Shown here one piece after another: positions 41,792 to 64,000 of a stretch of 64,000 nucleotides of DNA. The stretch spans positions 3,624 through 67,623 of the forward strand of contig JAYRHW010000189.1 of NCBI GenBank assembly GCA_041907145.1, given 5' to 3'. Under the pieces are notes generated by a model. The model did not search any database, was not told where the DNA came from, and saw nothing but the letters and a program-made list of their open reading frames with translations. Source of the stretch: Bdellovibrionota bacterium. GTDB taxonomy: Bacteria > Bdellovibrionota_C > UBA2361 > JAFLCA01. The position numbers were made by a program, and so were the translations under genes. Position 1 is the stretch's first letter. Each line of letters begins with the position of its first letter.

Positions 41792-43768
41792 TTAATTCAC
41801 TTGCCGAGCTGCAATAAATAGCCGTTCCACATTGCCGTAAATCACGCCTTCAAGCTGCGGCACATTAATCACATAACTGTTCAGTGTTGCAGTGACGCTA
41901 TACGAATTGCCGTAGTCGACCGTAAAATTGGCTCGGCCTTGGGAATCGGTCATCGCCGTCTCCCCGGTTCCTAGTAATATCGCCGCATACGGCATCGGAT
42001 TTCCTAAAGTATCCCGAACCGAGACGGTCAGCGTGTATTGCTTCGGCGCAACCTGGAAATTCACAGAGGTATCGCCGCTAGCGTAGCCGGACATCTGACG
42101 GAACACCAAGCCGCTGGCCTCGGCCCTCAAGCTATACTGACTAGGTCCTGGAAGGTTCTTGAGCTGGTACCGCCCGTCGGGGCCGGTGAATGCCGTGTAC
42201 TGACCCTTCTCGAGCGACAAGGTCAGTTTGGCGCCCGATACCGGCTGCCCGGCTGATCCGGTAACCATACCCGACATCACGAAGGAAATCGGGGATGGAA
42301 TCGGCGTTGGTGTAGCCGTTGGCGCAGGTGTCGGCGTTAGAGTTGGAACTGGAGTCGGCGTTGGTATTGATGGCGTCGGTGTGGGGGCCGGAACAGAGAC
42401 GGCCGAAAGCAACATGTTATACGCATCGACGTAGCGGCTGTTTATCACTCTACCGGTGAGCGACGGGATCGAACGCGCCGAGTCTAGAAGAGTCTTTTTT
42501 AGTTCAGTGGCGTGTAAACTTGGGCGGAACGACTTAAGCAGCGCTATGGCGCCAGTTATATGCGGACACGCCATCGAGGTGCCCTGCAGGTACACGTATT
42601 TGTTGCCTGGGTATGTGCTGGCAATTGAAACACCAGGTGCCGCAATCATGACGCTGCTTCCACCGTAATTGGAGAATGAGGCCAGGTCACCGTTGGAGTC
42701 TACTGCAGCGACTGAAATCACATTAGACAAAGGATAGCTGGCCGGATACTGAGGCGAGCTGTCCATATTGATGGATGAGTTGCCGGCCGCCGCGATGAAG
42801 AGAATATCAAGATCACGCGAAGCGGCAATCGCAGCCTCAAGTTCCGGAATTCGACCGCCGCCGCCCCAGGAATTGTTGGTAGCAACGATGTTCACTCCGC
42901 TCTTCTTGAGGTTGTTTACATAGTCCAGAGCCCTAATTGCATCGTATAGTTGGCCACTGCCCTGAGAGTTCAAGAACTTTACCGGGATTATTTGTACCTT
43001 CCCTGCGATGCCGGCAACGCCCAGATTGTTGTCAAAGGATGCACCGATAGTTCCACTGACATGCGTGCCGTGCCCATTATCGTCAAAAGGGTTGCCGTTG
43101 CTGCTGACCGCGTTGAATCCATGAATGTCGTCGACTATGCCGTTCCCATCATCGTCTCGATTGTTGCCAGCAATTTCTCGCGGATTGGTCCAGATGACAT
43201 CGGCGAGATCGGGATGGGTGTAGTCGGCACCCGTGTCAATGACTGCCACTATCGTGTCCGGAGAGCCGGTACACATGTCCCAGGCCTGCGTCATTTTCAT
43301 CGACGATACCGCCCATTGGTAGGCCAAATAGGTATCTCCCGGGCTCTTGAGCGCATTGAATACGACGTTCAGACTGCAAGAGAAACCGCGATTCACCGTA
43401 TGCTGATGGACATTGATGCGGCCCGCCAAACCAGCACGACGAACTTTCAAAACTTCTGCACGATTTCTCGCTTTGAGAGCGGCGCAGGGATTCCAGCGGG
43501 TCACCGATGCTAAGTCAGAGGCCTGAGGCTCACCATCAAGGGGCGTATCGGCCTCGACCACCAGTGTCGCATGGTCCGTTTCATCCGCGATAAAGAGCTC
43601 GCGGGGAGAGGCCTCCTCTAACGCATCGAGAGCCTTTTGTTGAAGCGGCGCAGCAAGCTCCCGCTTCATGACATACTGGCCCTTGACGTAGGTATCAGTG
43701 ACCTCGACCTCCTGAGCAAAAGCCGATCCGGCAGCAAGCAACAGTGAAAGTAGCGCGATACGTTTCAT
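41792..43768 (-). CDS. secreted subtilisin-family (S8) serine protease with Pro/Thr linker and two C-terminal carboxypeptidase-regulatory-like domains
   Basis: Signal peptide MKRIALLSLLLAAGSAFA; catalytic triad motifs AVIDTGADYTHPDL, HGTHVSGTIGA, GTSMACPHITG; linker PAPTPTPSIPTPTPVPTLTPTPAPTATPTPIPSP. Strong GAGGAGG RBS. Confidence 0.9.
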   Translation of the reverse strand: MKRIALLSLLLAAGSAFAQEVEVTDTYVKGQYVMKRELAAPLQQKALDALEEASPRELFIADETDHATLVVEADTPLDGEPQASDLASVTRWNPCAALKARNRAEVLKVRRAGLAGRINVHQHTVNRGFSCSLNVVFNALKSPGDTYLAYQWAVSSMKMTQAWDMCTGSPDTIVAVIDTGADYTHPDLADVIWTNPREIAGNNRDDDGNGIVDDIHGFNAVSSNGNPFDDNGHGTHVSGTIGASFDNNLGVAGIAGKVQIIPVKFLNSQGSGQLYDAIRALDYVNNLKKSGVNIVATNNSWGGGGRIPELEAAIAASRDLDILFIAAAGNSSINMDSSPQYPASYPLSNVISVAAVDSNGDLASFSNYGGSSVMIAAPGVSIASTYPGNKYVYLQGTSMACPHITGAIALLKSFRPSLHATELKKTLLDSARSIPSLTGRVINSRYVDAYNMLLSAVSVPAPTPTPSIPTPTPVPTLTPTPAPTATPTPIPSPISFVMSGMVTGSAGQPVSGAKLTLSLEKGQYTAFTGPDGRYQLKNLPGPSQYSLRAEASGLVFRQMSGYASGDTSVNFQVAPKQYTLTVSVRDTLGNPMPYAAILLGTGETAMTDSQGRANFTVDYGNSYSVTATLNSYVINVPQLEGVIYGNVERLFIAARQVN

Positions 43769-43774
43769 CTCTTG

Positions 43775-46700
43775 CTACCTCCTCGCTGCTCTAGACTTCG
43801 GTTTGGGGGTCGGCGCGACCTTCTTCTTGGATCCAGTACTCGAACTTCCGGACGAAGAATTGGGACGAACGCGGACCGCAAAGTGCAACCCACCGAGATC
43901 GGATTCCTTCTTGTCAAGATCCTCGGTCCATCCCACGTACGATACCGGCACCGAGGTTACTTCCAAGCGCCCGGTGGCTGATTCGCCAGAGAGCTCGATG
44001 CGGCAATAGTCGTCAGGGAGGATGCCGTTCCAGCGGAAGTTGCTATCAATACCGAAGGAGTAGCGGCCCATGGTCGCGCAGTTGGCGATGATCTTTATAT
44101 CGAAAGTCTTCAGTTGGCTCTTCTCGCTGGCCGACAGTTTACGTCCATTTTGGCTGCTCTTGAGTTCTCCGCCCATAAGGAAGGCCATCGGGGTCGGGGT
44201 AGCGCTCGGAATCGGACTCGGAGTCCAGGTCGGCGTGGCGGTTGGGGTATCGGTAGGATCCGGAGTTTCGCCAGGTTTTGGAGTCGCTGTCGAGGTCGGA
44301 GTTGCCGAAGGCGTCGCCGTTGCAGTTGGCTGCACGCACTGAGTTAAGCCTGATGCCTTGGTGTCATGGAGGCTGCCGAAGGCGTAAATGCGTACCGTAT
44401 TGGCACTATTGAAGTCGCGCGGAGTCTCAAAGGTAGTATCGCTATTTGCCGCAGCCACGAAGCTGCCACGGAAGTTAGTGGCGTACATATCCCAATCGAC
44501 CTGCACATTTGAATTGTTCGAATTACGGACGCGCCACATGAGCTTGGAACTTGGATCGTCGGAACATAGGGACGTCAAGCGCAAGAGGGCCGGCGAGGTC
44601 GGAGTCGCAGTCGGAGTTACTGTAGGTGTCCTTGTCGGAGTAGCAGTAGCCGTCGCAGTCGGAGTTCTGGTCGGAGTCGCCGAATTAGTAGCCGTTGGCG
44701 TACTCGTCGGAGTAAAGGTTGGTGACGGAGTTCTTGTCGGGGTCGCAGTGTTCGTCGGCATCGGCGTGCTCGTTGCCGTCGGAGAATTGGTTGCTGTCGG
44801 CGTACTTGTCGGGGCTACCGTCGGAGTAACGCAAGGACCCTCGTAGTCATACGGATGCTTGTCGAGGTGCTGCTCATGAGCTTTGCCCTTCGACATGCTC
44901 ATCGTTTGCGTGGATTCCGGATTACCGGGCGCTACGTGACAGAAGACTATCTCCCCGTCGTTCGTAGGTGTAGCGCTGGCGGTGGCTGTTACGGTCGGGG
45001 TGGTCGTAACCACCGGCGTCTTGGTCGGAGATGGTGTTACGGTAGGAGTTGCCGTATTTGTAGCCGTTGGGGTTCTCGTAGCCGTAGCAGTCGAAGTCGC
45101 CGTCGGAGTAATAGTCGCCGTCGCCGTGAATGTTGCTGTCGGCAAGGGCGTAGCAGTACTAGTAGCTGTCGGGGTTATCGTCGAAGTCGGAGTTCTCGTC
45201 GGAGTGGCAGTTACCGTAGCCGTATTTGTTGGGGTGGCGGTCCTCGTTGCCGTCGGAGTTACCGTTGAAGTCGACGTCACGGTCGGAGTTGGCGTCGCAG
45301 TACGAGTCGGCGTCGCAGTCGGGGTGTTCGTTGCTGTCGGAGTTGATGTCGGTGTTGGACCAACCTGAGCACTGGAACGGAAATTGAGATAGTAGAGGTC
45401 GCGTGCCGCAGTTCCAGTGTATTGGTCCGGCGTCATGGACGAATCCTGGTATTCAGCCGTAACGATGTACTCCGAGCCCTCCGGAACCGTGATGGAGTAG
45501 ATACCCTGCTCGTTCGTTTCAGTGCTGCGGGTCCGCTCGTCATAATTGAGAGTTATCTTGGCGCCTGGAATTTGATAGCCCCAGAAATCGAGCACCGTTC
45601 CGGATAACACGAAGCTGCGCACGTTTATTTCGCGGAAATCTATGTCGGGAGTGTCGCAGCGAATGTTCGGGATGGAAACCGCAGCCGGATCAAAATAGCG
45701 ATCATTATACTCAACTGACACCCAGTTATTTGCAATGGCAGGTGAAGTAAACTGATAGTGCCCCTGCTCATCCGTGTAGGTAACAACATCATGATTGTTG
45801 AGGATTGCCGCTTGTGAAATCGGCTGACCAGACTGATCGATCACTCGCCCGCTGACGACGTAGGAGTCCTGGACCGGGCAAATGGAACCCCGGGTCGGCA
45901 GCCGTGTTGATGGCACCGGCAAAACAGCGCGGAAATTGACTCCGGCGTATGCGCGCATCACGTCGACGAACGAAATTTGCAGCGGATCAAAAACCATATT
46001 GCCCGAAGCGACTCGTAGCGAATAGCTGCCGCCTTCATTAACGCTGAGGACGTATTCTCCGCGGGAATTCGTGGTGCCAACATTTACTTCGTTAAGATAG
46101 ACGGCAGCGCCGGGCTGAGGAAAGCCATCAGGGTTATAGACAACGCCGCTAATGCCCTGCTTCGGGGTTCCAGACTGTCCAGCTCGCGCGATGAATTCAC
46201 CGCTCGAGGCACTACTCGTGGCGCAAAAGCGGAAAGGTGTGGTGCTCACGTGATCAAGGGTGTAGCCAGACAGAGCACCGATCACGGGAACATAGTCATC
46301 TCGCTTGCCGCTGTTGTCGTCATTACAGAAAGTCTGCTGCTCGGCCGGAAAGTAAATCTTTCCGCTTTGATCCGTGATTTGCGATAGAGTCGGACCATCT
46401 TCGTACAAATCCGGTACGGTAATGCGAGCACCGCTCATGGGATCCGAGTTAGCGTCTAAGACCTGCCAAGCGACTGCGTTCTGCTTCACTCCGTTAGTGA
46501 CGGCATGAAATAGGATCTTGGTAGTGGGGCCTGTAGGTGTAAGCGCGATGCGCGGGGGCGAGAACTGAAAGTTTCCCTTCGGGACAAGATTGATAATGGT
46601 GTTCGGGGCGACGCCAAGCTGTGCGGTGGTAATCCTGAGATTTCCGCTGCCGTCAGTACTGCGGGCGGACTTCGTCAGCGCAGCCACTCCGGAATCTCCC

Positions 46701-47491
46701 AGGAACTCAACTCCCGCCACGCCCGCTCCCGTCGAACTCTCGACCCGGATTTGATAGGTAACCGACGAGCCGACTGACTGCGGTGCGACCGGTGCGCATG
46801 CGGCAGTAACATATCCGTTCACGACATTAGCGTTAGGACATACTTGATTGGCTGGAGTCGAGCGCGATGTGAAGATGCAATCTTGATTGCTCGGACTAAC
46901 TGCAAATGCAGTTACATAGTTGTTATCAAGATCGGCATCGCGATCGTTACAGACTGTCGCAAGACGAGGGACGGAGAAGAAAACAGCACCGTCCCGGTCG
47001 GTCACTCGTTGCGAAGGACCAAGCGCGTTCGGGCTAGTCACTGGAATGCCTTCCAATCCCCGACCAGTCGAATTCGCGACCACCCAGCGCACTACCGACG
47101 ATTGATTTCCGCTAAGCACTCTGACGTCGCAGTTGAATTGCGGACAATTTTCGCGACTTACGCGGAGTTCAGGGGGATCGAATGAGACATTTCTGGAAGG
47201 ATGATAGTAGGTCACCGTGGGGGTGGCCGAATCGAGATTCTCCGTGATAATTGACACCAGACCTGAACTGGAGCTGAACATAGCGGGCTGGCGGCTCACA
47301 CCGTAGTTACCGGTTACCGATATCCCGTCGAGCGGAAGGTCGGCATCTGAGTAAAAGCGGATTTTAAAGGTATCAGCGTGCGCAGGCTTTATGACGAGCA
47401 GCACAGCAACCGTAGCCAGCAAAAATGCACTGACGAACCGCGCAAGACGCAGGAGCTGACCGAGTGATGTACCGTGGGACTGTGACTGCAC
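43775..47491 (-). CDS. giant secreted/surface protein: N-terminal signal/anchor, multiple carboxypeptidase-regulatory-like (CarbopepD_reg-type) domains, >300 aa of Thr/Pro/Ala tandem repeats, basic C-terminal tail
   Basis: 1238 aa. Repeated G(V/R)V(I/Y).xxGxPxxGAxV...TDxxGxYxF-type units, then three TP-rich blocks (e.g. [57 protein letters not shown]...), and a C-terminal [17 protein letters not shown] tail. GTG start. Confidence 0.8.
44185..45365. repeat. coding low-complexity tandem repeat region (ACN/CCN codon repeats encoding Thr/Pro/Ala linker blocks)
   Basis: Visible degenerate periodic DNA (gtcggagt.gc.gt.. units) in three blocks. It produces spurious GV-rich ORFs on the opposite strand. 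Confidence 0.7.
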
Positions 47492-47741
47492 GCTGCTTTG
47501 TTCAAACTGCCGGGAGGCCTATTCCTCTCCGGTCACCCCAAGCCTTTCGTGCAATTTGCGCAAACCGTTGAGGTTCTGCGCCAGAAAATCTTGCCCCTTC
47601 AATAAGTTACGAAACTCCCCTACGCACTCCACCTAGGGCCGTACTACCAGTGCGATTGCCTCGGCTATATTGGCGTATATCCCTTAGTCCCGGCGCAGCC
47701 ACATTGGGGAGAAGAATCGGACTGGACCCGCCTGATTACGA

Positions 47742-50429
47742 CTAAGACCGAGGAGGCCCGCCTGTGGTGGCCTGATAGAGAGTATGGTGCAGGATTTCAA
47801 AGAGGCCCTTGGAGATATGAGGCGTCGAAATCAGTCGAGAAAGCGCTTGCTCCATGGCGGAGCGGCGAACGGGGTCCAATCGCATGAACCAGTGGAACGA
47901 CTTTGCCAACCCGGCCGCCACATTCGGATTGAATGCATCGACCTGCAAAATACGATCAGCGAAGAACGTGTACCCCTCACCCGATAATCGATGAAACTGC
48001 GGTAAATTGCCCGCAAACGTTCCATACAGGGAGCTTATCTTATTGGGATTCTTGGAATCGATGGCGGGGTTGCGTTCAAGCAACTTCACCACCTCAATCG
48101 CATCACCCGTGGGCACGGCCACTTGTGCATTTACCCACATGTCCATCACCACGGAATCCGCTCGCCACCGGTCATAGAAATGGGACAACGCCTGCCCTCT
48201 CTCCGGCCCGTCACCAAGAGCCAGGCACCTCAGTGCGGCGTAGGAGTCGGTCATATTATCCGCCGATCTGTATTGTTCAAATGCAGCCGCCACTGCCTCC
48301 GACTTCTCCTCGGAGACCAAATACCCCAAACAGACGTTCTTCAAAGACCTCCACCCCATTGAGTTCGAGTCCCGGCGATATATCCCGCCTAATCTCTTGC
48401 TTATGTCGCGATAGCTCCCCCAGAAGACTTCACGATTTCTACTCGTCAATGTCTGCAGGAAAAATCGTCGGGCAGCGAAGGCCGCGTCAAAGTCCGGGGT
48501 TTCAAGACTCATACACAATGAAAGCAAGCTCGGCATCATCAGGGCTTGAGCCCTCAATGCCGCATCAAATTTCTCATCCACCAACAGTCGCGCGAGAGCC
48601 TCGGAAACAGTAGTCGACACCTGAGGATCTCTTCCCTGCTTTATCGCGCTGTAAGCTTGCTGCAAACATCGAAGCCCCAGCCGCTGCCCGGCCTCATACC
48701 GATTGAAAGGATCACTGTCATGCGCAAGCAGAAACGCTAAGTCATCATCGCTGTAATCAAATTCAATCTTTACCGGAGCAGAAAAATTACGCAGCAGCGA
48801 TGGAACCGGCCTCTCCTTCAAACCCCTACACTCGACCGCAGCAGATTCGGCCCGCAGGTCGACATAGCTGCCTCGCTCGCTGAACTTTAGCCCTGGCACG
48901 GCATCAAGTTTTACATCCCGCCCCGCTGCATCGAGCAGTCCAATCCGTATCGGAATGACAAACGGCTTCACCTGCGCCTGGCCCTGTATCAACGGAGAAG
49001 ACTGAGAAAATTCCAGCCGATACCTGCCTGAAGCCGCGTCGAAAACTTCCCGAACCTTAACCACCGGAGTCCCAGCTTGAGAATACCAGAGTGCAAACTG
49101 CGAAAGGTCCTCTCCGCTCACGTCCTGCATGACCTGCAAGAAATCCTCGGTGCGTACAGCTTGTCCGTCAAAGCGGCGCAAATACTCTCGCACGGCCCGA
49201 TTGAAGACGCCTTCGCCGAGCAGTGTTTTCAACATTCCGATGACTTCGGCTCCCTTGCGATATACCGTCGAGGTATAGAAATTGTCGATTTCGATATACG
49301 ATTCGGGGCGAATCGGATGCGCATTGGGGCCCGCGTCCTCGAGAAATTGGCGCTCCCGCACAATTCGCACGTTCTTAATGCGCTCCACCGCGGCCGAATT
49401 CATGTCAGCCGAGAAATCCTGCTCACGGAGCACCGTAAGTCCTTCCTTGAGCGTAAGTTGAAACCAATTTCGCAGCGTAACCCTGTTGCCCGTATAGTTA
49501 TGGAAATACTCGTGGGCGATGACCGCTTCGATTTCAATATAGTCCTCATCACGAGCCGAGCTGGGGTCGGCCAAGACATACATGGCGTTAAAAATGTTCA
49601 ACCCCTTGTTCTCCATGGCGCCGGCATTGAAGTCATCGACAACAACAACGACATAAGTATCTAGGTCATACTCCAGTCCATAAACATCCTCGTCCCAGCG
49701 CATGGCTTTCTGCAGGGACTCCATGGCAAATCTGCAGCGCTCTTCATTGCCATGGCTGCAGTAAATCTGAAGCAGGATGGATCTCCCACTCTTGGTCACA
49801 AAACGATCTTCGATGACGCCCAAATCTCCAGCTACCAACGCAAACAAATAGCAAGGTTTTAGGAAGGGATCCTTGAACGTTGCTTCGTGCCTGCCGCCGG
49901 CCAGCACTCGCTGCGAGGTCTTGTTTCCGTTGCACAAAAGCACCGGATACTGTTTCTTGTCCGCCTCGATGGTAACCTCATAGGCCGTCATCACGTCCGG
50001 ACGATCAGGGAAGTAGGTCAAACATCGAAACCCCTCGGCCTCCATTTGGGTGCAAAGGATCCCCTTTGACTCGTAGAGGCCCAATCCCGATTTATTGTCT
50101 CGCGGCTTAATCGCCGTGACTATCGAGAGTTCTGCAGACTCGCCGATGTCCGGAATACTCAGCGATTCACGGCTCAGCACAAATTCTGTCTCGCGAAGCA
50201 GCCTGCCATTAACCGCGATGCTTCGAAGTTCGAGATTGCGGCCGTCGAGGCGCAGAGCTTCCCCGGACATTGCTGTGCCTCGCTTCAAGCTTAATGTCGA
50301 AGTTACGACCGTCTCTGCGGCTCGAATATCGACCTGCAGACGGATCGCCGGCACGAGATAGGCCGGTGGACGATAGTCACTCAGCAGTACTTGTTTTGGG
50401 GATTCCTGGTCCGAACTCATCGCAATCAT
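47742..50429 (-). CDS. pepN: aminopeptidase N (M1 family)
   Basis: GAMENKGLNIFN and HEYFHNYTGNRVT...E zinc-binding motifs. Start placed at the internal Met (MIAMSSDQ... / LLSDYRPPAY matches the PepN N-terminus). The track ORF extends to 50984. Confidence 0.9.
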   Translation of the reverse strand: MIAMSSDQESPKQVLLSDYRPPAYLVPAIRLQVDIRAAETVVTSTLSLKRGTAMSGEALRLDGRNLELRSIAVNGRLLRETEFVLSRESLSIPDIGESAELSIVTAIKPRDNKSGLGLYESKGILCTQMEAEGFRCLTYFPDRPDVMTAYEVTIEADKKQYPVLLCNGNKTSQRVLAGGRHEATFKDPFLKPCYLFALVAGDLGVIEDRFVTKSGRSILLQIYCSHGNEERCRFAMESLQKAMRWDEDVYGLEYDLDTYVVVVVDDFNAGAMENKGLNIFNAMYVLADPSSARDEDYIEIEAVIAHEYFHNYTGNRVTLRNWFQLTLKEGLTVLREQDFSADMNSAAVERIKNVRIVRERQFLEDAGPNAHPIRPESYIEIDNFYTSTVYRKGAEVIGMLKTLLGEGVFNRAVREYLRRFDGQAVRTEDFLQVMQDVSGEDLSQFALWYSQAGTPVVKVREVFDAASGRYRLEFSQSSPLIQGQAQVKPFVIPIRIGLLDAAGRDVKLDAVPGLKFSERGSYVDLRAESAAVECRGLKERPVPSLLRNFSAPVKIEFDYSDDDLAFLLAHDSDPFNRYEAGQRLGLRCLQQAYSAIKQGRDPQVSTTVSEALARLLVDEKFDAALRAQALMMPSLLSLCMSLETPDFDAAFAARRFFLQTLTSRNREVFWGSYRDISKRLGGIYRRDSNSMGWRSLKNVCLGYLVSEEKSEAVAAAFEQYRSADNMTDSYAALRCLALGDGPERGQALSHFYDRWRADSVVMDMWVNAQVAVPTGDAIEVVKLLERNPAIDSKNPNKISSLYGTFAGNLPQFHRLSGEGYTFFADRILQVDAFNPNVAAGLAKSFHWFMRLDPVRRSAMEQALSRLISTPHISKGLFEILHHTLYQATTGGPPRS

Positions 50430-50449
50430 GAATTGTATCGCTGTCTGGG

Positions 50450-51370
50450 CTATTTCGGATTTTCGCCTTTCATGCGCAGCCACACAAGGCCGCCGAGCAC
50501 GGCAAGAACGTAGGACTTGGCTCGCAATACTACGGCCACCCCAAGAGCTTGGGCCGGAGTTGCACCGATTCCATGCAAGAAGAAGTAGAACGCCCCCTCC
50601 TGAATACCCAGCCCATTCGGCGTAGCAGGAATCGACCCCACCAGTAAAATGATCGGCAGGACCACGAACAAATCCCAAACAGGAGGATGTTCCCACCCCA
50701 CTGCCTGGGCAGCAACTACGGTATTTACCACGGTGAGAGAGTGATAGAGAAAGGACAGTATCAGCGTTGTTCCCAAGAGACGAACATTCCCTCGCGCTAG
50801 CCGAAACCCGGATTGAACTTTGTGCATGCCCACGAGCACGGGCCGCAAAATGGCAAAACGCTCGAGAAGATGGGCCGGACGATCTGCCAAGGCAAGTACG
50901 GTGATAATGCCCAGACCCACGCCGACCAAGGCGATAGCAATACGTATCTCCACCGTCACATTGTCCACAAACCACATGAAGCACAAAGCCAAGAGCACCA
51001 TGGCCAAGAGGCCGGTGTAACGTTCAAGAATAGTCGCGGCCAGCGCCTCGTGTTGCCCAACTTTCTTGCCGATGTACCAACTGCGGACGATGTCTCCCCC
51101 GACATAGGACGGCATAAGCAAGTTCACGAAATAGCCGACCAGATATAAACCAAAGAGACGCACGAGCGAGACCGGCGCCTTGAGAAACTCGATGAACAAC
51201 TTCCACTTCAGCGCACTAACATAAATAAGGGCGATAGATAGCAAGGCCAGGCGCCCGATATCCCGCATCGAAAGGTCCTCAAGCGCGACAAGCAGCTCCT
51301 GGGGACTGACTAGATAGACAAGCCCAACCAAGATCGCCAGCGCAAATAACGTGCGAAGAACCTTCTTCAC
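50450..51370 (-). CDS. polytopic membrane protein, flippase-like / LPG-synthase-TM (UPF0104)-like candidate
   Basis: 306 aa with ~8 hydrophobic helices. 4-nt overlap with the upstream GT-C gene. Family assignment is by gestalt only. Confidence 0.55.
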   Translation of the reverse strand: MKKVLRTLFALAILVGLVYLVSPQELLVALEDLSMRDIGRLALLSIALIYVSALKWKLFIEFLKAPVSLVRLFGLYLVGYFVNLLMPSYVGGDIVRSWYIGKKVGQHEALAATILERYTGLLAMVLLALCFMWFVDNVTVEIRIAIALVGVGLGIITVLALADRPAHLLERFAILRPVLVGMHKVQSGFRLARGNVRLLGTTLILSFLYHSLTVVNTVVAAQAVGWEHPPVWDLFVVLPIILLVGSIPATPNGLGIQEGAFYFFLHGIGATPAQALGVAVVLRAKSYVLAVLGGLVWLRMKGENPK

Positions 51371-53394
51371 TTGAGCACCTCAACCTCTGCTATCGACCAG
51401 TCGAAAATCGGCTGCGTTCCCATTTGTCTCAAAATGATGCGCTGAATATCCGCCGATGCGAAGGTGAACAGCATGGACGTCGCATCGTCCCGAGCGTAGC
51501 GGACCGCTTCCCAGTCGTCGGGATCAAGGAGTACGCGCTTGTTCCCGTTCCGCAGCACGAGATCTATCCCTAAGTCCCGCGGCTGATCATGCACCCAAGT
51601 GCCCAGCTCATACCGGACGCCGCGAATCGTCTCGCCAGCAGCGATATCGATACGATACTCCATGCCAGGACGCTGTGGAGCCGCCGAACCCCAGCGAGTG
51701 CCTGGATTACCGTCCACCCCGAGCAGGACGGCGGTCTGTCCATCTGTCGCTGACGGGGTAAGCAACTTGCTCTCGAGGGGAACAAGAGACAACTCGCTGG
51801 GATGCAGGTCATAGAGCACTTCATAATTGGAAACCAATACGGATTGGTACCGCAGGCCCTCTAGGTCGAAGGCCCGTCTCACGACTCTAGCCTGCGATGG
51901 AACCAATACTAACGGTAAATAGCTCTTGCCTCGAATTCCCGCATCGCGCTCATAGTCGCGAATGCGAACGTCCTTGGGCTCATGAAAAATCGCGAATCGC
52001 ACTCGCTCCTTTGTCTCGAACGCCAGCCGATACCCGATCCAATAGTTAGTTCGCACAAAATCGATTCCAGCCTTCTCGAGAAAGCCAATCAACTCACGGT
52101 GATCTTTGGAAACCCTTTCCCCTTCATAAATGAATGGCTCTCCCGGCAGGGCCCTGCCGCCCAAGTACCAAGACGAGACATTCAATAGCAGAACTCCGCA
52201 AGTCAAAGCCCCAGCTAGAATTCGACTACGCAAGGCGAGCAACGAGATTGCACAGGCACTAAGCACGAAAATAGAGACATAAGCCGGCAGCAAGTACCGC
52301 GGAGACTGTACGAGCGAGCCAAAGGAGCTGGTGACAAATACTGCGACGATAGTCATGAGCAAGAGCATGAAGAGCTCTACCGGATCACGGCGGCTAATCT
52401 GAAAGGCACACAAGGCCTTGAGCCCAAATCGCCGCTTCCATAACAAATACACGAGAAGAAGGCCGTACAGTCCAAACGCGGCCTGGGAAGCTCCGGGGAA
52501 AACATCTTCCTTGTGCCACTGACGCCGTGCTCCGAGGAGCATCGGCAAAGAGGTGCTCAGTAATCCCTCCGTATGCTCGGAAACTGCAGAAACATCCGAG
52601 GCTTTGACAATCTCGAACGAAACAAAATGATGTCGAAGATTATAGATCCAAAACGGTGCGCCGCCGATGAGAAATGCAACTGCTGCTGCCAGAGAATGGC
52701 GAAGCAAAGACTTGAACAAATCCGGGAGCGAATGTCTGTTCGCTGAGTACAACGATGTCGCTATACAAAAGGCAGAAGGCAAAATGAAATACAGAATTTG
52801 ATTGTTTACCCACCAGCCGAGGCCCAAAAACGCGGCGATCGCGGCAGTTTGCAACTCCGTGGGTCGCGAGGTGCGGAGCCAGCGCAGCAGGAGTACGATC
52901 GAGAAGCCGCCGATACACAGGATTTCCATGTACCCTCCGCGCGCCATCGAGCTCCACAGCACCAGAAGCTGGGGAGGCAAAGCTGCAAACAAAGCTGCCA
53001 GCCTTGCAACGCCTCTGCTGCCCAGCTCCAGACCTATCTGATAGAGCAGCACGACAAACAGCAACGAACACACAAGCGGGACGACCTTAAGCGCCACCGA
53101 GGAAATTCCCACGACGGCAAATAGGCCTGCCGCGAAGAAGGCTTCAAGGCTGCCCATGTAGTGCTGCCCGTAATAGAAAATCGGGAAATCCCTGCCTTCG
53201 AGAATATGCTTGGCCATGAGGCCGACGATGGCCTCATCGGAGTCTATAACGAAGCGGTTAGCGAATAGGAAATCCAGCCGCAGCAGCAGTCCTGCCAGCA
53301 GAATCAGCGTCAGAAATATTCGATCATGCTTTAGCAAGAAATTCGGTAGCACAACGAGAGCTGCTTCAGAGGATGATTTGCTGCCTGACGGCAT
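51367..53394 (-). CDS. GT-C fold membrane glycosyltransferase (GT39/GT83 PMT_2/ArnT-like) with C-terminal discoidin (F5/8 type C) domain
   Basis: The N-terminal first-loop motif VIDSDEAIVGLMAKHILEG...FYYGQHYMGSLEAF is followed by ~11 TM helices. The C-terminus LLGVDGNPGTRWGSAAPQRPGMEYRIDIAAGETIRGVRYELGTW matches the discoidin DGxxxTxW...W.vDLG pattern. Confidence 0.65.
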   Translation of the reverse strand: MPSGSKSSSEAALVVLPNFLLKHDRIFLTLILLAGLLLRLDFLFANRFVIDSDEAIVGLMAKHILEGRDFPIFYYGQHYMGSLEAFFAAGLFAVVGISSVALKVVPLVCSLLFVVLLYQIGLELGSRGVARLAALFAALPPQLLVLWSSMARGGYMEILCIGGFSIVLLLRWLRTSRPTELQTAAIAAFLGLGWWVNNQILYFILPSAFCIATSLYSANRHSLPDLFKSLLRHSLAAAVAFLIGGAPFWIYNLRHHFVSFEIVKASDVSAVSEHTEGLLSTSLPMLLGARRQWHKEDVFPGASQAAFGLYGLLLVYLLWKRRFGLKALCAFQISRRDPVELFMLLLMTIVAVFVTSSFGSLVQSPRYLLPAYVSIFVLSACAISLLALRSRILAGALTCGVLLLNVSSWYLGGRALPGEPFIYEGERVSKDHRELIGFLEKAGIDFVRTNYWIGYRLAFETKERVRFAIFHEPKDVRIRDYERDAGIRGKSYLPLVLVPSQARVVRRAFDLEGLRYQSVLVSNYEVLYDLHPSELSLVPLESKLLTPSATDGQTAVLLGVDGNPGTRWGSAAPQRPGMEYRIDIAAGETIRGVRYELGTWVHDQPRDLGIDLVLRNGNKRVLLDPDDWEAVRYARDDATSMLFTFASADIQRIILRQMGTQPIFDWSIAEVEVLK

Positions 53395-58553: not shown

Positions 58554-58946
58554 ATGCGCATCGGGAAACTCTTGGTAATTGGCGGACTGCTGCTGGAACT
58601 GTCCGGGTGCGGCTCCGGTGATGGGCGCGAGCCTGGCATTATCCGTGACATCAAGCATTTTTTTCGCAGCACGAGTAATACCATAGAGGGATACACTCCT
58701 AGTCGCGACCAGATCTCGGCAACCGCGACAAAGCAATTTCAGGATATGTTTACATTCGAGTACCGAGTAGTAGAGGTTGACAATGCTGTGACTGCGGAGC
58801 AACTGGAGCGAAAGCTCGCCGAGCTTGGGCAGGATCGCTGGGAATGCACGCAACTTCTCGAGCGCGGATCCTCTTATATGATTCCTTGCCGGCGCCGTCC
58901 CATAAGTCTGCTCCGATATGCGCTTAGATTTTTGCCGATCCCATAA
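58554..58946 (+). CDS. lipoprotein, DUF4177-like
   Basis: Lipobox LLELSGC after a signal sequence, and a C-terminal EYRVVEVD...LERKLAELGQDRWECTQLL pattern. GGAGAGGAAAGA RBS. Its stop overlaps the next gene's ATG as TAATG. Confidence 0.55.
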   Translation: MRIGKLLVIGGLLLELSGCGSGDGREPGIIRDIKHFFRSTSNTIEGYTPSRDQISATATKQFQDMFTFEYRVVEVDNAVTAEQLERKLAELGQDRWECTQLLERGSSYMIPCRRRPISLLRYALRFLPIP

Positions 58947-60013
58947 TGCGATATCTGTTGTTCACTTTTCTCCTGACTCTGTCGGCCTGCGCGTCGCAGC
59001 GCCCGTTGCTGCCTCCCGGGGAAGTGCCCGAGCAAACTGAAGTCGCCTCGGATGATGAGCAGTACGGACAAGCGGTCTTGAATCAACTCATGGATCGCTA
59101 CGAGCTGGACACCGATGATACTCGCATCAATAGAGTGCGCGATATAGCTCAGCGACTGACGGAGACAAAGAACCCCAACAGCAATCCTTGGCATATTTAC
59201 GTGCTAAAGGATCCGGATTTCAAGAATGCCGCGGCTACCCGCGGCAATTATATTTTCGTCTGGACCGGGATCCTAGAGACCGTCAGAGATGATGATGAAC
59301 TCGCGACGATCTTGGCTCATGAAATTGGCCACGTCCTTGCAGGTCACACCTTGCCCGATCCTTCGGAGGAAGTGAGCAGCATGATAGCCGGCATCGCCGG
59401 AACGGCCACCGGGCAGGTGCTTTCAGCTCAGGGCGCCGTAGGCATTTTAGCCAGCCTCGCGGATTCCTTAGTTCGCTCGACGATGGAAGCGGTGTTGGTT
59501 AATCCCGACTTAAAGCGAAAAGAGCTGGAAGCCGATCAGGTGGGGCTCTTCTTAATGGCTGAAGCGGGATTCGATCCCGAAAGAGCAGTGAGTTTTTGGG
59601 AACGCATAAAGGATGACCCCGATTTCGGAGGATTTCCGATTGCATTTCTTTCTTCGCACCCCTCCTCCGAGGATCGCTTCCTCAGGCTCCAACAGCTTTT
59701 GCCTGAAGCTGAAGAAGTTTATCACGGTAAACGCAAGGACTCGCGCTTCATTGCAGACCCAGGGCGCAGCGATTTCGTTCTATCACAGCGGGAGGTCTCT
59801 GCGCGTAAAGAAACCTGGGTTGTGCTGGAACCCACGGCTGCGGTGATGGACGCGCCCAAAGCCGAAGCTAAGCGCGTTGGGACTTTGAAAGTTGGGGCCA
59901 AGGTAACCGTGGTCGGCCACCGCGGACCCTGGCTAGAAATTTCCGAGCCCTCGCAAGGCTTCGTCAAGGGAACTGACCTTGCTCCATTTAAGACCGATAG
60001 TTTTGCGCGTTAG
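58946..60013 (+). CDS. M48-family zinc metalloprotease lipoprotein with C-terminal SH3b-like domain
   Basis: Lipobox LTLSAC; HEIGHVLAGH zinc motif; C-terminus VGTLKVGAKVTVVGHRGPWLEISEPSQGFVKGTDL is SH3_3-like. Confidence 0.8.
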   Translation: MRYLLFTFLLTLSACASQRPLLPPGEVPEQTEVASDDEQYGQAVLNQLMDRYELDTDDTRINRVRDIAQRLTETKNPNSNPWHIYVLKDPDFKNAAATRGNYIFVWTGILETVRDDDELATILAHEIGHVLAGHTLPDPSEEVSSMIAGIAGTATGQVLSAQGAVGILASLADSLVRSTMEAVLVNPDLKRKELEADQVGLFLMAEAGFDPERAVSFWERIKDDPDFGGFPIAFLSSHPSSEDRFLRLQQLLPEAEEVYHGKRKDSRFIADPGRSDFVLSQREVSARKETWVVLEPTAAVMDAPKAEAKRVGTLKVGAKVTVVGHRGPWLEISEPSQGFVKGTDLAPFKTDSFAR

Positions 60014-60093: not shown

Positions 60094-63000
60094 CTAAGGT
60101 ACCGTGAAAAGCTTACCCGCGGCGTTTAGATAGAGCTTTTCCATCTCGGCAGCGTTAAATGGCCGGGAGCCGATTCTCCCGAAGATACTGACCTGATGCC
60201 CAGTTTCATCAACGGCGCGGTCGCGGTCCAGCGGCTTCGAAATATAGAGAGCCGGGCCATGCGTGGCACGATGGGCAATCACCAGCGGCTTTACTTCGGG
60301 GGAAAATCCATAAAAGGTTGGTACACGCTCCGGATCGGTTAACTGGAGGACCTTGAATCCGTTCTTACCATCCGCAAGATAGCCAAAGAGCGAGGCATTC
60401 GTAGTGGCCACTTTTACATCATTCAGATCATCGATTTTTCCTCCATCATTGAAGACCTGATAGACTTTGGGCTGTTCAGGCCGTTCAATATCCACGATGA
60501 CTAAACCTTGCGAGCCCCCCGCTACATAGGCATAGGTACGCGCCACATAAAGCCCACGAGCGTCAGGGAGGGCGATATGCGCATGCACGATTTCGTGCGC
60601 CTTATCTATATGCGTGATGTCTACGACGTGAAAGCCATCCGCTGCGGTGACAAAGGCGTAGCGAAACTGCACGGCGATGCCTGTGGGGTGGTTCATCGGC
60701 ACAGTCGCCAGCACTTTTGGCTGGAGCGGTTCATCAAGATCGATGATTACCAGCGAATTTGTGGTTGCAATGAATGCCCGAGCACCTGCCAACGTAATGG
60801 CTCGTGCCCCAGTCAAAATTCCCCCTTCGTTCCAGGTAAGCGCACGACTTAGAAAGTTGTTGCTTGGTTCGCGATCAGCCAGCGTGTCGACATTGACGGC
60901 AATTAAACCCTCCTCGCTATCGGTAATATATGCGTAGTGGTAGATCGGATGCATGGGTTGTTCGAGATTCTCCTCGAGCGGCTTTCTAAACGGGGCTATC
61001 GGCATAGTGGTGGGGAATGCGAACGAAGTGGCATTCGTGGTTGGTACATGCAAATCCTGTCCAAGCGGAGAGACCGGTGAGGTCGTGATTCGTTCCGAAA
61101 AGCCCTTGTTCCCGACGTTTGCGATATCATAGCAGCGGAAGCCTCCGGTACCCGCGGTCGTGCAGGCATATTCGCCTCGAGCCTGGATAGTATTCGTGAC
61201 CCCACCGGCACCATGATGAGTCTGAGATTCCAGCAGTTCCTGTCCCCGATCTTGATGCGCCTTGAAGTTATCGGGGTAGGCAAATCGTTGCAAATAACTG
61301 CCGATGACTGCTTGAGGCTCGCTCCACTCGGTGACTTGCACAGCCTCGAGGCCGGCACTGCCGGTTGCTACGTAGCTGTGGTAGCCCATGAAGTTGACGA
61401 AGTTAGTTCCCAAAAGCAAAAGCTGCGCCATGATTGCGTTGTTGTCATTCGCCTTCGAGACGTGACAGTCATTACAACCCTTCGTTTCGACCGTGCGCAC
61501 GGTATGCGGGAAATGCGGCGCAAAAGCCTGCGAGCTAAACCCGGCCGCCGATATCGGCGGCTGCTGTACGTAGATCTTCTGCCGGTTGATATCAGTAGAG
61601 CTAAGTATGAGCGCGCTTGAAGATCGCACCGGCACGATTTTGTTTCCCTTCGCCGGTCCGTGCAGGCCAATCTGATACATTTCATCACGGGCAACCTGAG
61701 GATTGTAACTGGCCCAATTGCGAGTGAGCTTGCCGTCATAGTGGTTCGATGTCTTCATCCAGTTTGCCTGAATCGGCAAGTGGCAGCCCGCACACCCGGT
61801 AATCCACGAGCTATGGCAGGTGAAACAAGCCATTTTATCATTCGAGTGTGCAAGCAGTTTAACTTGGTCCGCTGCCGCATCGACCTGCTTCAAACTGACC
61901 GAGCTGGGCGTGGTTTGCTCAGCGGTCAGCCGAGCTGTAAGTTTCGCCTTGGCGGACTTGGCGTTGAAGTCGGGACTGTTTGGATCGACCGAGTCCCTGA
62001 CCTGCCTGACCTTCCACTCAAGCCCCTGCGTAAGAGTCGAACGTTGATAAAGCTCACTCCCCTTCCATAGGAAGCGCAGATCGCCGAAGGGGGTGCGCAT
62101 GGTACTTAGATCTCGACCGCCCGGAGGCGCTGCGGGACCGGATGTCTTGAGCGTGGCACGCGCCGCCACTGAACCGTGGCAATCCTCGCAGCCAATCTCA
62201 ACCGCCTGGGCGACTTCGCCGTACATATTGCCGTCGCCATGCGCATCCTGGTCAAAGTGACAATCAACACAGTGCATGCCCTTGTCGACATGAATGTCGG
62301 CCATATGCACGGCCTTTTTGAATTTATCGGGGTCGCTGGCAGAAACTAGCCGTCCCTTGGCATCTAGAAGATTACCCTTTCGATCACGCTTGAAAATGGC
62401 TCTAAAATTCCAACCATGACCGTGGTAATCGGCGAACTGAGTATCCTTGAGTGTAGAATTCAGGTCGATGACGTTCTTCAAGAACTGGTTATCGGTCCAA
62501 AGCCCGCGAGCCGCGGCCTCTTCGGGATTGTGCTCCAAAGACTGATGCAATTCTTCATCGGTGGGGTTCCGTTGCTGCTTTGGCCACATCGACGGAGCAT
62601 CCGACTCATAATCCCACATCGTATAACCAAGAAATGAGTTCACGAACATATTGGGCTGATGCATATGGCAAACCATGCACTGGCTTGTGGGAATGGCGCG
62701 TGAGAACTCGTGGCGCAGCGGGTGTCCCTCTTCATCCTTCGGAATGGTCGGATCGACGGTCTGTGTTTTGCCATCATTGCCAAATTTGGCGTAAGGACCG
62801 GAGTGTGAGGGATCCCTATCGTTAGCATAGACGACATGGCACCCTGTGCAGCCGCTGCTGCGGTAATCACCCGGATGATCGTTAGTTCCGAGAAACGACA
62901 AGTGCGGATCGTTGAGACGCGTCTTATGAATATTGAGCACCGGAATTGCTACTCGTGACCCGGTTCCCAGACCGCGGTTCGAAGCGCGAATATCAGGCTT

Positions 63001-63777
63001 GCCGGATTCTTCCAAAGGATTTGGCAGCCCAATTTCCGCAAAGCTGCTCTTAATGAACTGCCCGCCCCGCTCAAAGACACGAAAATTATCACCCGGCTGG
63101 ACTACCTCCCACTGCGGCAGTGGAATGAGCTTCTCGAGCGCTCCTCTCGCGATTAGCTCTGGAGTAGGCGGCTGAGTGGCATGAATCTCACGCGCCAATC
63201 CGTTTCTGTCATAGCTTTCTCCCAAAACATACTTCTTGTAGGGAAGAATGTTGTTGTTGTACGAAGCACCTCCCCAAAGCATGGCCGACGTTGTCATGAG
63301 ACTTCGTTCAGCTGCGTGTACTTCCTTGGCGTGACAACCGCCGCACGTCTCACGAGCCACGCGTAGATCTCCGGGATTGACGAAGCGCACAAACTCGGGC
63401 GGTTCTTTCAACAAATCAGTGTAGCTGTGCTTCGGATTGGCCGAACTGGGCCAGTTCTCCGGACTTCGGGGTAGCACATGCGCAGACTGCTTTGCATGCT
63501 CGTAGGCAGCTGTACCGGGGGAAAGGTCCGCGGCCCGCACCGCCGAATTTCCGCCATGGCAATCCGTGCAGCCGATAACTACCGCCGGGTTCTTATGCAT
63601 GGTCAGCGTATCAGACTTGCTGTGACAGTCCTTGCACCCCAGGCTGTTGCTCCCCATTTGGCTGACACTGATGTTGAAGTTCAGCGGCGCAGGCTTTTCA
63701 TCCTCGGCATAGACCAGCCCCACGCCCGTCAGGGCAACGAGCAGAAGAGAACCGATATGGAGAAGAGCGGTTCGCAT
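60094..63777 (-). CDS. decaheme c-type cytochrome fused to C-terminal LVIVD-repeat beta-propeller (1227 aa, signal peptide)
   Basis: Ten CxxCH motifs counted: CKDCH, CTDCH, CGGCH, CTGCH, CMVCH, CVDCH, CEDCH, CFTCH, CAGCH, CNDCH. Signal peptide MRTALLHIGSLLLVALTGVGLVYA. C-terminal repeats SLVIIDLDEPLQPKV, GFHVVDITHIDKAHEIV, GLVIVDIERPEQPKVYQVF, GFKVLQLTDPERVP. Confidence 0.8.
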   Translation of the reverse strand: MRTALLHIGSLLLVALTGVGLVYAEDEKPAPLNFNISVSQMGSNSLGCKDCHSKSDTLTMHKNPAVVIGCTDCHGGNSAVRAADLSPGTAAYEHAKQSAHVLPRSPENWPSSANPKHSYTDLLKEPPEFVRFVNPGDLRVARETCGGCHAKEVHAAERSLMTTSAMLWGGASYNNNILPYKKYVLGESYDRNGLAREIHATQPPTPELIARGALEKLIPLPQWEVVQPGDNFRVFERGGQFIKSSFAEIGLPNPLEESGKPDIRASNRGLGTGSRVAIPVLNIHKTRLNDPHLSFLGTNDHPGDYRSSGCTGCHVVYANDRDPSHSGPYAKFGNDGKTQTVDPTIPKDEEGHPLRHEFSRAIPTSQCMVCHMHQPNMFVNSFLGYTMWDYESDAPSMWPKQQRNPTDEELHQSLEHNPEEAAARGLWTDNQFLKNVIDLNSTLKDTQFADYHGHGWNFRAIFKRDRKGNLLDAKGRLVSASDPDKFKKAVHMADIHVDKGMHCVDCHFDQDAHGDGNMYGEVAQAVEIGCEDCHGSVAARATLKTSGPAAPPGGRDLSTMRTPFGDLRFLWKGSELYQRSTLTQGLEWKVRQVRDSVDPNSPDFNAKSAKAKLTARLTAEQTTPSSVSLKQVDAAADQVKLLAHSNDKMACFTCHSSWITGCAGCHLPIQANWMKTSNHYDGKLTRNWASYNPQVARDEMYQIGLHGPAKGNKIVPVRSSSALILSSTDINRQKIYVQQPPISAAGFSSQAFAPHFPHTVRTVETKGCNDCHVSKANDNNAIMAQLLLLGTNFVNFMGYHSYVATGSAGLEAVQVTEWSEPQAVIGSYLQRFAYPDNFKAHQDRGQELLESQTHHGAGGVTNTIQARGEYACTTAGTGGFRCYDIANVGNKGFSERITTSPVSPLGQDLHVPTTNATSFAFPTTMPIAPFRKPLEENLEQPMHPIYHYAYITDSEEGLIAVNVDTLADREPSNNFLSRALTWNEGGILTGARAITLAGARAFIATTNSLVIIDLDEPLQPKVLATVPMNHPTGIAVQFRYAFVTAADGFHVVDITHIDKAHEIVHAHIALPDARGLYVARTYAYVAGGSQGLVIVDIERPEQPKVYQVFNDGGKIDDLNDVKVATTNASLFGYLADGKNGFKVLQLTDPERVPTFYGFSPEVKPLVIAHRATHGPALYISKPLDRDRAVDETGHQVSIFGRIGSRPFNAAEMEKLYLNAAGKLFTVP

Positions 63778-64000
63778 TAGTACTGAAGAATTACATTACC
63801 GAAAACATCATACAAAGTTCGATCGCCAAATAGATTTTCAAACCCGTTATTCGTGACCAAAGCTGAGGTACCTACTCGCAGAATGACATTGTTATTGAGA
63901 AAGGGCCGGTACAATAGACCAGTCGAGAAATCGAAGCCGATGCCTCTCGGGATTGAACCGTCCTGGCGCAGCGTCTCAAGAACCGAAGTATCATCAAACT
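63777..64000 (-). CDS. C-terminal fragment of upstream gene (possible beta-rich/outer-membrane protein), translationally coupled to cytochrome gene
   Basis: My translation of the minus strand gives ...FDDTSVLETLRQDGSIPRGIGFDFSTGLLYRPFLNNNVILRVGTSALVTNNGFENLFGDRTLYDVFGNVILQY*. The frame is open to the window edge. The stop TAA overlaps the cytochrome ATG as TAATG. Confidence 0.5.
   Translation of the reverse strand, partial: FDDTSVLETLRQDGSIPRGIGFDFSTGLLYRPFLNNNVILRVGTSALVTNNGFENLFGDRTLYDVFGNVILQY

Follow-up and report, generated by a model that had tools for sequence, protein, structure and literature searches.

A decaheme cytochrome fused to an LVIVD beta-propeller and its predicted barrel partner: distal part of a conserved seven-gene module, possibly for electron transfer to the outer membrane

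In this study, a 64,000-nucleotide stretch of the genome of a Bdellovibrionota bacterium (assembly GCA_041907145.1, contig JAYRHW010000189.1; referred to below as the window) was analysed, with a focus on gene F, which encodes a decaheme c-type cytochrome carrying a C-terminal LVIVD beta-propeller, and on gene E, a predicted outer-membrane barrel gene located directly upstream of it. Judging from gene content across related loci, E and F are not a stand-alone pair; they are the distal part of a conserved module of seven genes (A to G). The explanation that we prefer, and for which belief and doubt are about evenly matched, is that F and E would constitute the outer-membrane end of an electron-transfer route that leads through this module from the cytoplasm to the outer membrane. 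The relevant features within the window are:

60094..63777 (stop codon included), minus strand: gene F, decaheme c-type cytochrome with a C-terminal LVIVD beta-propeller, 1227 aa (from the open reading frame (ORF), CxxCH count, Pfam and homologs)
63706..63777, minus strand: signal peptide of F, residues 1–24, cleavage after VYA (read from the sequence)
61462..63636, minus strand: heme region of F, residues 48–772, with ten CxxCH and 14 further invariant His (motif scan and ortholog alignment)
60097..61389, minus strand: seven-bladed beta-propeller domain of F, about residues 797–1227 (predicted structure)
60337..60756, minus strand: four consecutive LVIVD repeats of F, with motifs at residues 1008, 1048, 1091 and 1140 (Pfam PF08309 and motif scan)
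63777..64000, minus strand: 3' end of gene E (last 73 codons and stop), predicted 18-stranded outer-membrane barrel, 577 aa in full

The ORF of F is intact, and its product (identical to protein P0001) has thousands of relatives in databases, the best 120 of which are full-length and share 66–82% identity with it; the named ones among these 120 come from metagenome-assembled genomes of Bdellovibrionota/Oligoflexia. A first-pass annotation of the window, made from the sequence alone, had described ten CxxCH motifs behind a signal peptide, and this was borne out: there are exactly ten (residues 48, 70, 145, 310, 367, 503, 530, 651, 662 and 768), against a mean of 0.02 in shuffled versions of the protein, preceded by a Sec signal peptide of the signal peptidase I (SPase-I) type (…LVYA↓EDE) without a lipobox. 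Lipobox-like Cys residues of some orthologs fall inside SPase-I signal peptides, and assignment of F as a lipoprotein was rejected for this clade. The only remaining Cys residues (872 and 882) are not conserved, and the motif scan of the F protein of the window detected no CxxCK, CX3CH or CX4CH. Multiple CxxCH motifs together with predicted Sec export thus mark F as a putative multiheme c-type cytochrome, and Pfam returned short Cytochrome_C7 and c3_2 matches alongside LVIVD. The invariant His and Met residues would be enough to make all ten hemes six-coordinate, a pattern that suggests an electron wire. MtrC holds 10 hemes in about 670 aa, and the spacing in F is not very different, so the earlier statement that its hemes are much more widely spaced was an exaggeration.

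No known reductase family, a match to which would have spoken against the first-pass annotation, was found to account for F. The NrfB model gave 18.5 bits (cutoff 184) and the ExtM model (NF040943) 86.2 bits in four stretches (cutoff 800), family hidden Markov models (HMMs) of the NrfA, HAO, MccA and OTR types gave no matches, and a PDB sequence search revealed no relative. No curated family, solved structure or paper describing F was found (its RefSeq name is "multiheme c-type cytochrome"), and literature searches returned no published description of F or of the D-E-F combination.

The propeller, likewise proposed from the sequence, was supported by the LVIVD model and by structure prediction. 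The LVIVD family (PF08309) matched F with 46.9 bits (gathering cutoff 20.2, E = 1.7e-12; best stretch 1072–1100), the four repeats are about 40 aa in length, and the C-terminal domain was modelled with confidence as seven blades. Its only invariant His residues are H841 and H943, and there is no invariant Cys or Met; a catalytic Cu or Fe site was therefore judged unlikely, and the sequence argues for a docking or binding role of the propeller rather than a redox-metal site. The suggestion that F is a surface oxidoreductase whose propeller binds a mineral found no backing in the form of a lipobox, a sorting signal or a conserved redox-metal site, and stays speculation. In the representative library, two very large proteins, P0309 (4937 aa) and P0327 (6013 aa), have only LVIVD repeats in common with F (22 and 16 matched stretches, respectively); the repeat type is thus also used in very large, presumably surface, proteins.

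The stop codon of E and the start codon of F share one base (TAATG, the TAA of E with the ATG of F), as had been noticed initially. The same one-base overlap is present in the RefSeq annotation of Sphingobium, and the end of E also falls on the start of F in loci L002 and L053 (our own ORF calls). The part of E that lies inside the window (73 C-terminal residues) is identical to the C-terminus of P0161 (577 aa). Logan contig L082 overlaps window positions 62342–64000 (1659 bp, 99.94% identity); from it came the remainder of the locus, with part of B followed by C, D, E and F, and hence the upstream B-C-D-E genes of this very organism. Recovered in full, E is not a cytoplasmic enzyme; it is a predicted 18-stranded outer-membrane barrel, in line with the initial guess of an outer-membrane protein. 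The predicted structure is the 18-strand monomeric fold of the AlgE/OprD-like type, and the C-terminal aromatic residue is invariant. PF13372 (Alginate_exp) did not match P0161 and gave weak matches in 8 of 39 E homologs (best E = 1.3e-05). When the invariant strand residues were assigned to sides by a crude parity rule, 45 pointed to the lumen and 14 to the lipid, and those on the lumen side are mostly charged or polar (7 Arg, 5 Asp, 4 Glu, 3 His and 6 Asn). Two further conserved elements of E are an N-terminal extension of ~75 aa and a loop of 70 aa (residues 408–478). It is thus predicted, from the modelled fold, to belong to the 18-strand substrate-channel class and not to the 26-strand sheath class. 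Of the porin-cytochrome conduit proposed earlier, the redox module with an outer-membrane barrel was retained, while the barrel is predicted to be AlgE/OprD-like and not of the MtrB type.

The surroundings of E and F were surveyed in 81 loci, by tblastn with the neighbours of F in locus L001 and, independently, by clustering of all ORFs. Both approaches gave the same seven genes, in place of the two-gene redox module envisaged at first, and the module was found in at least five phyla. E is directly upstream of F in 80 of the 81 loci, and the exception ends at a contig edge. The other genes occur in 58 (A), 57 (B), 61 (C), 72 (D) and 48 (G) loci, with E in 80, and most absences fall in loci with short flanks. 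In the RefSeq annotation of Sphingobium, stops and starts within G-D-E-F overlap or nearly abut, and A-B-C form a convergent operon. Across the 81 loci the cluster contains no further conserved gene and no other quinone-interacting subunit, and none of A to F reaches any NCBIfam cutoff.

The products of the remaining five genes are as follows. A (about 780–800 aa, no signal peptide) begins with a flavoprotein part resembling thioredoxin reductase (TrxR), YpdA and TrxR-type ferredoxin-NADP+ reductases (FNR), from which the redox CxxC is missing in all but one of 53 orthologs; two cNMP-binding domains (PKA/PKG-like) and a HycB/HydN-like ferredoxin domain come next, and 16 invariant Cys fit four [4Fe-4S] clusters. 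B (about 270 aa) has five hydrophobic helices and two invariant His pairs, H82/H96 and H249/H263, both of the H-x13-H form, which implies, at the level of sequence, two stacked b-hemes. Weak matches to PF01292 (prokaryotic cytochrome b561/Ni-hydrogenase cytochrome b) were obtained for 25 of 26 B members (best E = 1.5e-07; 7.3 bits against a cutoff of 30.1 in L001), and a PDB sequence search with B gave nothing meaningful. C (about 560 aa) consists of a cytoplasmic FHA domain, one hydrophobic anchor and a heme part with 10 CxxCH in 51 of 52 orthologs. G (about 445–475 aa) is a secreted pentaheme protein with a cytochrome c554-type domain, four CxxCH and an invariant CX4CH. D (about 650 aa) comprises HbpS/GlcG/DUF336 domains without CxxCH, has a lipobox in 43 of 63 orthologs and four invariant Cys, and its nearest solved relative is the formaldehyde sensor EfgA. 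The A-B-C trio may be an independent, reusable cytoplasm-to-periplasm electron module. As a side observation, the FHA domain of C would need a phospho-signalling pair, such as the Ser/Thr protein kinase encoded in L001 (23340–23711, about 9.6 kb downstream of F) and the PP2C-domain phosphatase encoded in the window (listed below).

A scan of species-representative genomes with F (without its signal peptide) as the query confirmed at least 592 F stretches. Among the matches listed, identity was 66–71% within Bdellovibrionota and 55–61% over the full length in Alpha-, Beta- and Gammaproteobacteria, Acidobacteriota, Myxococcales and Binatia; cultured hosts among them are Limnobacter alexandrii, Sphingoaurantiacus capsulatus, Fontimonas and Hyphococcus. 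In a library clustered at 50% identity, the F family is represented by about 15 full-length sequences (42–58% identity), all of which span both the heme region and the propeller, and therefore the fusion of the two appears fixed. In an alignment of 82 sequences (Bdellovibrionota, Alpha-, Beta- and Gammaproteobacteria, Acidobacteriota, Myxococcota and Binatia), 327 of the 1227 positions of F were at least 97% identical, including all ten heme sites, and His residues outside the motifs conserved to the same degree are 61, 100, 352, 356, 373, 452, 454, 491, 496, 513, 644, 755, 758 and 841. All ten CxxCH are kept in 77 of 81 orthologs; in the nine-CxxCH variants that were read (P0243, P0249 and P0252), CX4CH takes the place of the motif for heme 3.

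The F gene was also found on 13 megaplasmids of Sphingobium and Sphingopyxis, and in S. herbicidovorans MH it is carried by a conjugative replicon, plasmid pMSHV (NZ_CP020539.1). The entire module is present on this 959-kb megaplasmid (locus L083, 793330–823154), flanked by ShlB/FhaC two-partner-secretion genes, a gene for a 2092-aa hypothetical protein and two metallophosphoesterase genes. The megaplasmid location, together with 55–60% identity between phyla, suggests horizontal spread of the module. Divergent relatives of F vary at their ends: P0250 has 28 CxxCH, with an 18-heme c7-like extension N-terminal to the 10-heme core and propeller; P0248, P0252, P0255 and possibly P0247 have lipoprotein signal peptides; and P0249 ends with a hydrophobic stretch followed by RRKSRRRNK, which is sorting-signal-like. 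Read from sequence, these relatives support an association with the outer membrane and an entry of electrons at the N-terminus.

Arranged by predicted location, the cofactors form an ordered series: flavin and Fe-S clusters in the cytoplasm, two putative b-hemes in the membrane, 10 + 5 c-hemes in the periplasm and 10 more encoded together with the barrel. Since this inventory runs from the cytoplasm to the outer membrane, electron export without the quinone pool is the reading that we favour, and outward flow is preferred because of thermodynamics and because no energy-coupling subunit is present. It is built on gene content, conservation, cofactor-binding motifs and predicted folds, from which we infer the direction of flow, the physical contacts, the location of F and the identity of the acceptor. 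In this scheme, cytoplasmic A (FAD flavoprotein, two cNMP-binding domains, four [4Fe-4S]) would take electrons from NAD(P)H, B would carry them across the inner membrane via its two putative b-hemes, and anchored decaheme C and soluble pentaheme G would pass them through the periplasm to the ten-heme chain of F at the outer membrane. Barrel E and lipoprotein D would hold F there, the propeller acting as a docking or binding module and not as a catalytic metal site, and the final acceptor of the electrons would either travel through E or make contact with the D-E-F assembly. The quinone pool would be bypassed, and the cNMP-binding domains of A and the FHA domain of C would make the chain regulated.

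Several observations speak against this electron-export scheme. With 18 strands, a barrel is probably not wide enough to surround a multiheme domain in the way MtrB does, and the scheme offers no explanation of how electrons pass the E barrel. The F protein of the window has no surface-sorting or secretion signal and no lipid anchor and, on sequence grounds, may be wholly periplasmic; the AlphaFold2 (AF2) model of its heme region is poor (pLDDT below 50 across most of residues 190–500 and 630–770). D has no invariant His. The cultured hosts are aerobes, whose need for electron export is not obvious, and 55–60% identity between phyla is a level seen more typically in enzymes than in the known outer-membrane cytochromes.

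In the main rival explanation, F would work in the periplasm as an oxidoreductase with many hemes, either a terminal reductase or an oxidase, whose substrate is a small, probably anionic solute; E would be its dedicated substrate or product channel, and A-B-C-G would supply or remove electrons. We consider this rival a serious competitor, although on the unlikely side. It draws on the fold of E and the mostly charged or polar residues that line its lumen, on the missing lipobox and sorting signal of F and on the enzyme-like conservation (327 of 1227 positions across phyla), and porin-like ExtI of Geobacter, whose cluster includes ExtM, has been implicated in selenite and tellurite reduction (PMC5877670). 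The heme region, however, gives no sign of a catalytic heme: CxxCK and other atypical motifs are missing from the F protein of the window, invariant His and Met suffice for ten six-coordinate hemes, the known families of multiheme reductases named above do not match, and two invariant His without Cys or Met make a Cu or Fe centre in the propeller improbable.

TrxR-type FNR enzymes are reversible, and the same proteins could thus operate in the reverse direction, with D-E-F oxidising a donor outside the cell or in the periplasm, such as Fe(II), Mn(II) or a reduced compound (organic or of sulfur), from which electrons would flow inwards to the cytoplasmic flavoprotein. The module has no terminal oxidase, and a similar trio (an FHA-multiheme cytochrome, a protein with five transmembrane (5-TM) segments and a [4Fe-4S] protein) is expressed in the Fe(II) oxidiser Ferrigenium straubiae, for which inward flow was proposed (bioRxiv 10.64898/2026.01.22.701106). 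This trio, however, was likened to A-B-C by its description, NAD(P)+ reduction from c-type hemes is uphill and no subunit coupling it to the proton motive force is conserved in the module, and the hosts are mainly organoheterotrophs, so that such inward flow is distinctly unlikely. HbpS-family proteins include a component of a redox-stress sensor, and D, whose nearest solved relative is itself a sensor, could together with the two cNMP-binding domains of A and the FHA domain of C point to a device mainly for redox sensing or signalling and not for bulk electron flow. About 25 c-hemes, two putative b-hemes, four Fe-S clusters and a flavin would be a very large investment for this purpose, and the conserved genes of the cluster include neither a transcription factor nor a histidine kinase; the sensor role is very improbable. 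Finally, genes for a lipoprotein, a barrel and a decaheme cytochrome lying side by side superficially parallel the classical MtrCAB, PioAB and Geobacter Pcc porin-cytochrome families, and F gave a weak match to MtrC domain II/IV. At 12.6 bits this match is far below the MtrC/OmcA cutoff of 30 (PF22113), F is not a lipoprotein, and the MtrA/DmsE model (TIGR03508) had no match in F and reached 27 bits in the neighbouring C (cutoff 192). The HMM scores and the signal type of F refute membership at the family level, and E and F almost certainly do not belong to these families.

What the electron-export reading shares with the MtrCAB/PioAB/MtoAB systems (Shewanella, Rhodopseudomonas and Sideroxydans) is a decaheme gene beside genes for an outer-membrane barrel and a lipoprotein, with presumed electron transfer to or across the outer membrane. 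The components themselves differ. E has 18 AlgE/OprD-like strands, whereas MtrB has 26, and it does not belong to the MtrB/PioB family (PF11854, barrel of about 26 strands); F, at 1227 aa, has a propeller and no lipid anchor; D is DUF336/HbpS-like and lacks CxxCH; and the electron input is a cytoplasmic flavo-Fe-S protein in place of a quinol dehydrogenase such as CymA. In Geobacter, the extHIJKLMNOPQS cluster is of interest because ExtM is the curated family nearest to the heme region of F (NF040943). The ext cluster encodes the porin-like, smaller ExtI, several multiheme cytochromes, a b-type cytochrome and an Fe-S protein, and ExtM is an uncharacterised 12-heme protein (PMC5877670). ExtM has no propeller, F scores far under its cutoff, and ext uses a Rieske/cytochrome b pair (bc-type), in contrast to the flavoprotein and cytochrome b561 of the module. 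Compared with AlgE and the OprD/Occ porins, E is always encoded with multiheme cytochromes, has no conserved polysaccharide genes nearby and possesses the additional N-terminal extension and loop described above.

A c-type heme domain fused to a beta-propeller is also known from cytochrome cd1 nitrite reductase (cd1 NiR) and the alpha subunit of hydrazine synthase (HZS-alpha), the latter a heme-propeller enzyme described in PMC12758564, and the Foldseek matches include cd1 NiR and BtuG. Those enzymes have one or two hemes and a propeller that is eight-bladed (cd1) or N-terminal and six-bladed (HZS-alpha), with the active site at heme d1 in the propeller (cd1 NiR) or in the adjoining heme domain (HZS-alpha), while in F ten hemes are combined with an LVIVD propeller that has seven blades, lies at the C-terminus and lacks a conserved cluster of metal ligands. 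Propellers also accompany outer-membrane proteins elsewhere: BtuG of Bacteroides is a seven-bladed propeller associated with the BtuB barrel, and NHL propellers, discussed in a preprint on Tenderiales, are associated with outer-membrane cytochromes in Desulfovibrio ferrophilus and Tenderia clusters. These propellers, however, are separate proteins of other repeat families and are not fused to cytochromes, so the resemblance is one of fold only; in the same preprint, LVIVD is mentioned near cytochromes solely as a separate putative attachment protein.

The proximal half of the module has other parallels. Fre-MsrQ, the ferric reductase domains of the NOX type and the Tmc/Hmc complexes of sulfate reducers combine a cytoplasmic flavin or Fe-S donor, a di-heme b membrane protein whose paired His lie on two helices and a periplasmic heme acceptor, and the logic that A-B-C would follow resembles theirs. 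B, however, stays below the Pfam threshold, and the fusion of a TrxR-like FNR with two cNMP-binding domains and four [4Fe-4S] clusters, like the FHA-anchored decaheme cytochrome, does not occur in those systems. The only literature trace of an A-B-C-like trio that was found is the Ferrigenium straubiae preprint, in which an FHA-nonaheme cytochrome, a 5-TM protein and a [4Fe-4S] protein are called novel and of unknown function, FHA-multiheme fusions are said to be previously unreported, and no D-E-F partners are mentioned (bioRxiv 10.64898/2026.01.22.701106). This trio is likely homologous to A-B-C.

The F family is abundant (at least 592 stretches) and, with 55–60% identity between phyla over 1200 residues, unusually conserved, and its hosts are mainly ordinary aerobic heterotrophs of freshwater, marine and soil habitats and uncultured Bdellovibrionota. 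Known outer-membrane conduits (Mtr, Pio/Mto, Geobacter Pcc/Ext and Cyc2) come mostly from metal-respiring or iron-oxidising specialists. The system is uncharacterised, and its parts (a cNMP-binding flavo-Fe-S protein, a b561-like protein, an FHA-decaheme, a DUF336 lipoprotein, an AlgE-like barrel and a propeller-fused decaheme) have not previously been described together; sequence motifs and predicted folds suggest that electrons could pass from NAD(P)H to the outer membrane without involvement of the quinone pool. If electron export is the correct explanation, the capacity for extracellular or periplasmic electron transfer extends to a large group of bacteria not considered electroactive, and a new structural way of bringing hemes to an outer-membrane barrel is added. 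A bolder version, which we regard as unlikely, casts the module as a trans-envelope NAD(P)H oxidase, NOX-like and regulated, that serves aerobic heterotrophs. Through ~27 hemes, and bypassing the quinone pool, it would bring reducing power from the cytoplasm to the cell exterior, where O2 would be reduced to superoxide or electrons would be passed to Fe(III), Mn(III/IV) or humic acceptors. The LVIVD propeller would dock on the AlgE-like barrel in an arrangement without parallel among known porin-cytochrome complexes. Such an oxidase would provide a molecular basis for the widespread, genetically unexplained production of extracellular superoxide and reduction of metals by bacteria of oxic waters and soils. 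The cultured hosts Sphingobium herbicidovorans MH and Limnobacter alexandrii make the family directly testable.

The rest of the window is ordinary chromosomal context (including MutS, flagellin, a Wzm/Wzt exporter and secreted peptidases). No Rfam family reached its gathering threshold in the window, and promoter and terminator scans gave nothing relevant. The following features were recorded:

8045–9952, minus strand: flagellin of unusual length (635 aa), whose conserved N- and C-terminal helical domains are separated by a large central region
15008–17233, minus strand: 741-aa PP2C-domain protein, Ser/Thr phosphatase (Pfam)
35412–37253, minus strand: long ORF, 613 aa, no Pfam match at E ≤ 1e-5
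41792–50984, minus strand: block of large genes of the secreted-peptidase type (Pfam)
51367–53394, minus strand: long ORF, 675 aa, no Pfam match at E ≤ 1e-5
58946–60013, plus strand: M48 peptidase, lipoprotein-like, SH3_3 domain at the C-terminus; gene convergent with F across a gap of 80 bp

The M48 peptidase gene is not conserved beside F in the other loci. The peptidase block encodes an S8 subtilase (658 aa) that carries a CarboxypepD_reg domain, a protein with CarboxypepD_reg repeats (1238 aa) and an M1 aminopeptidase (1080 aa) that is extended by ~300 aa at its N-terminus.

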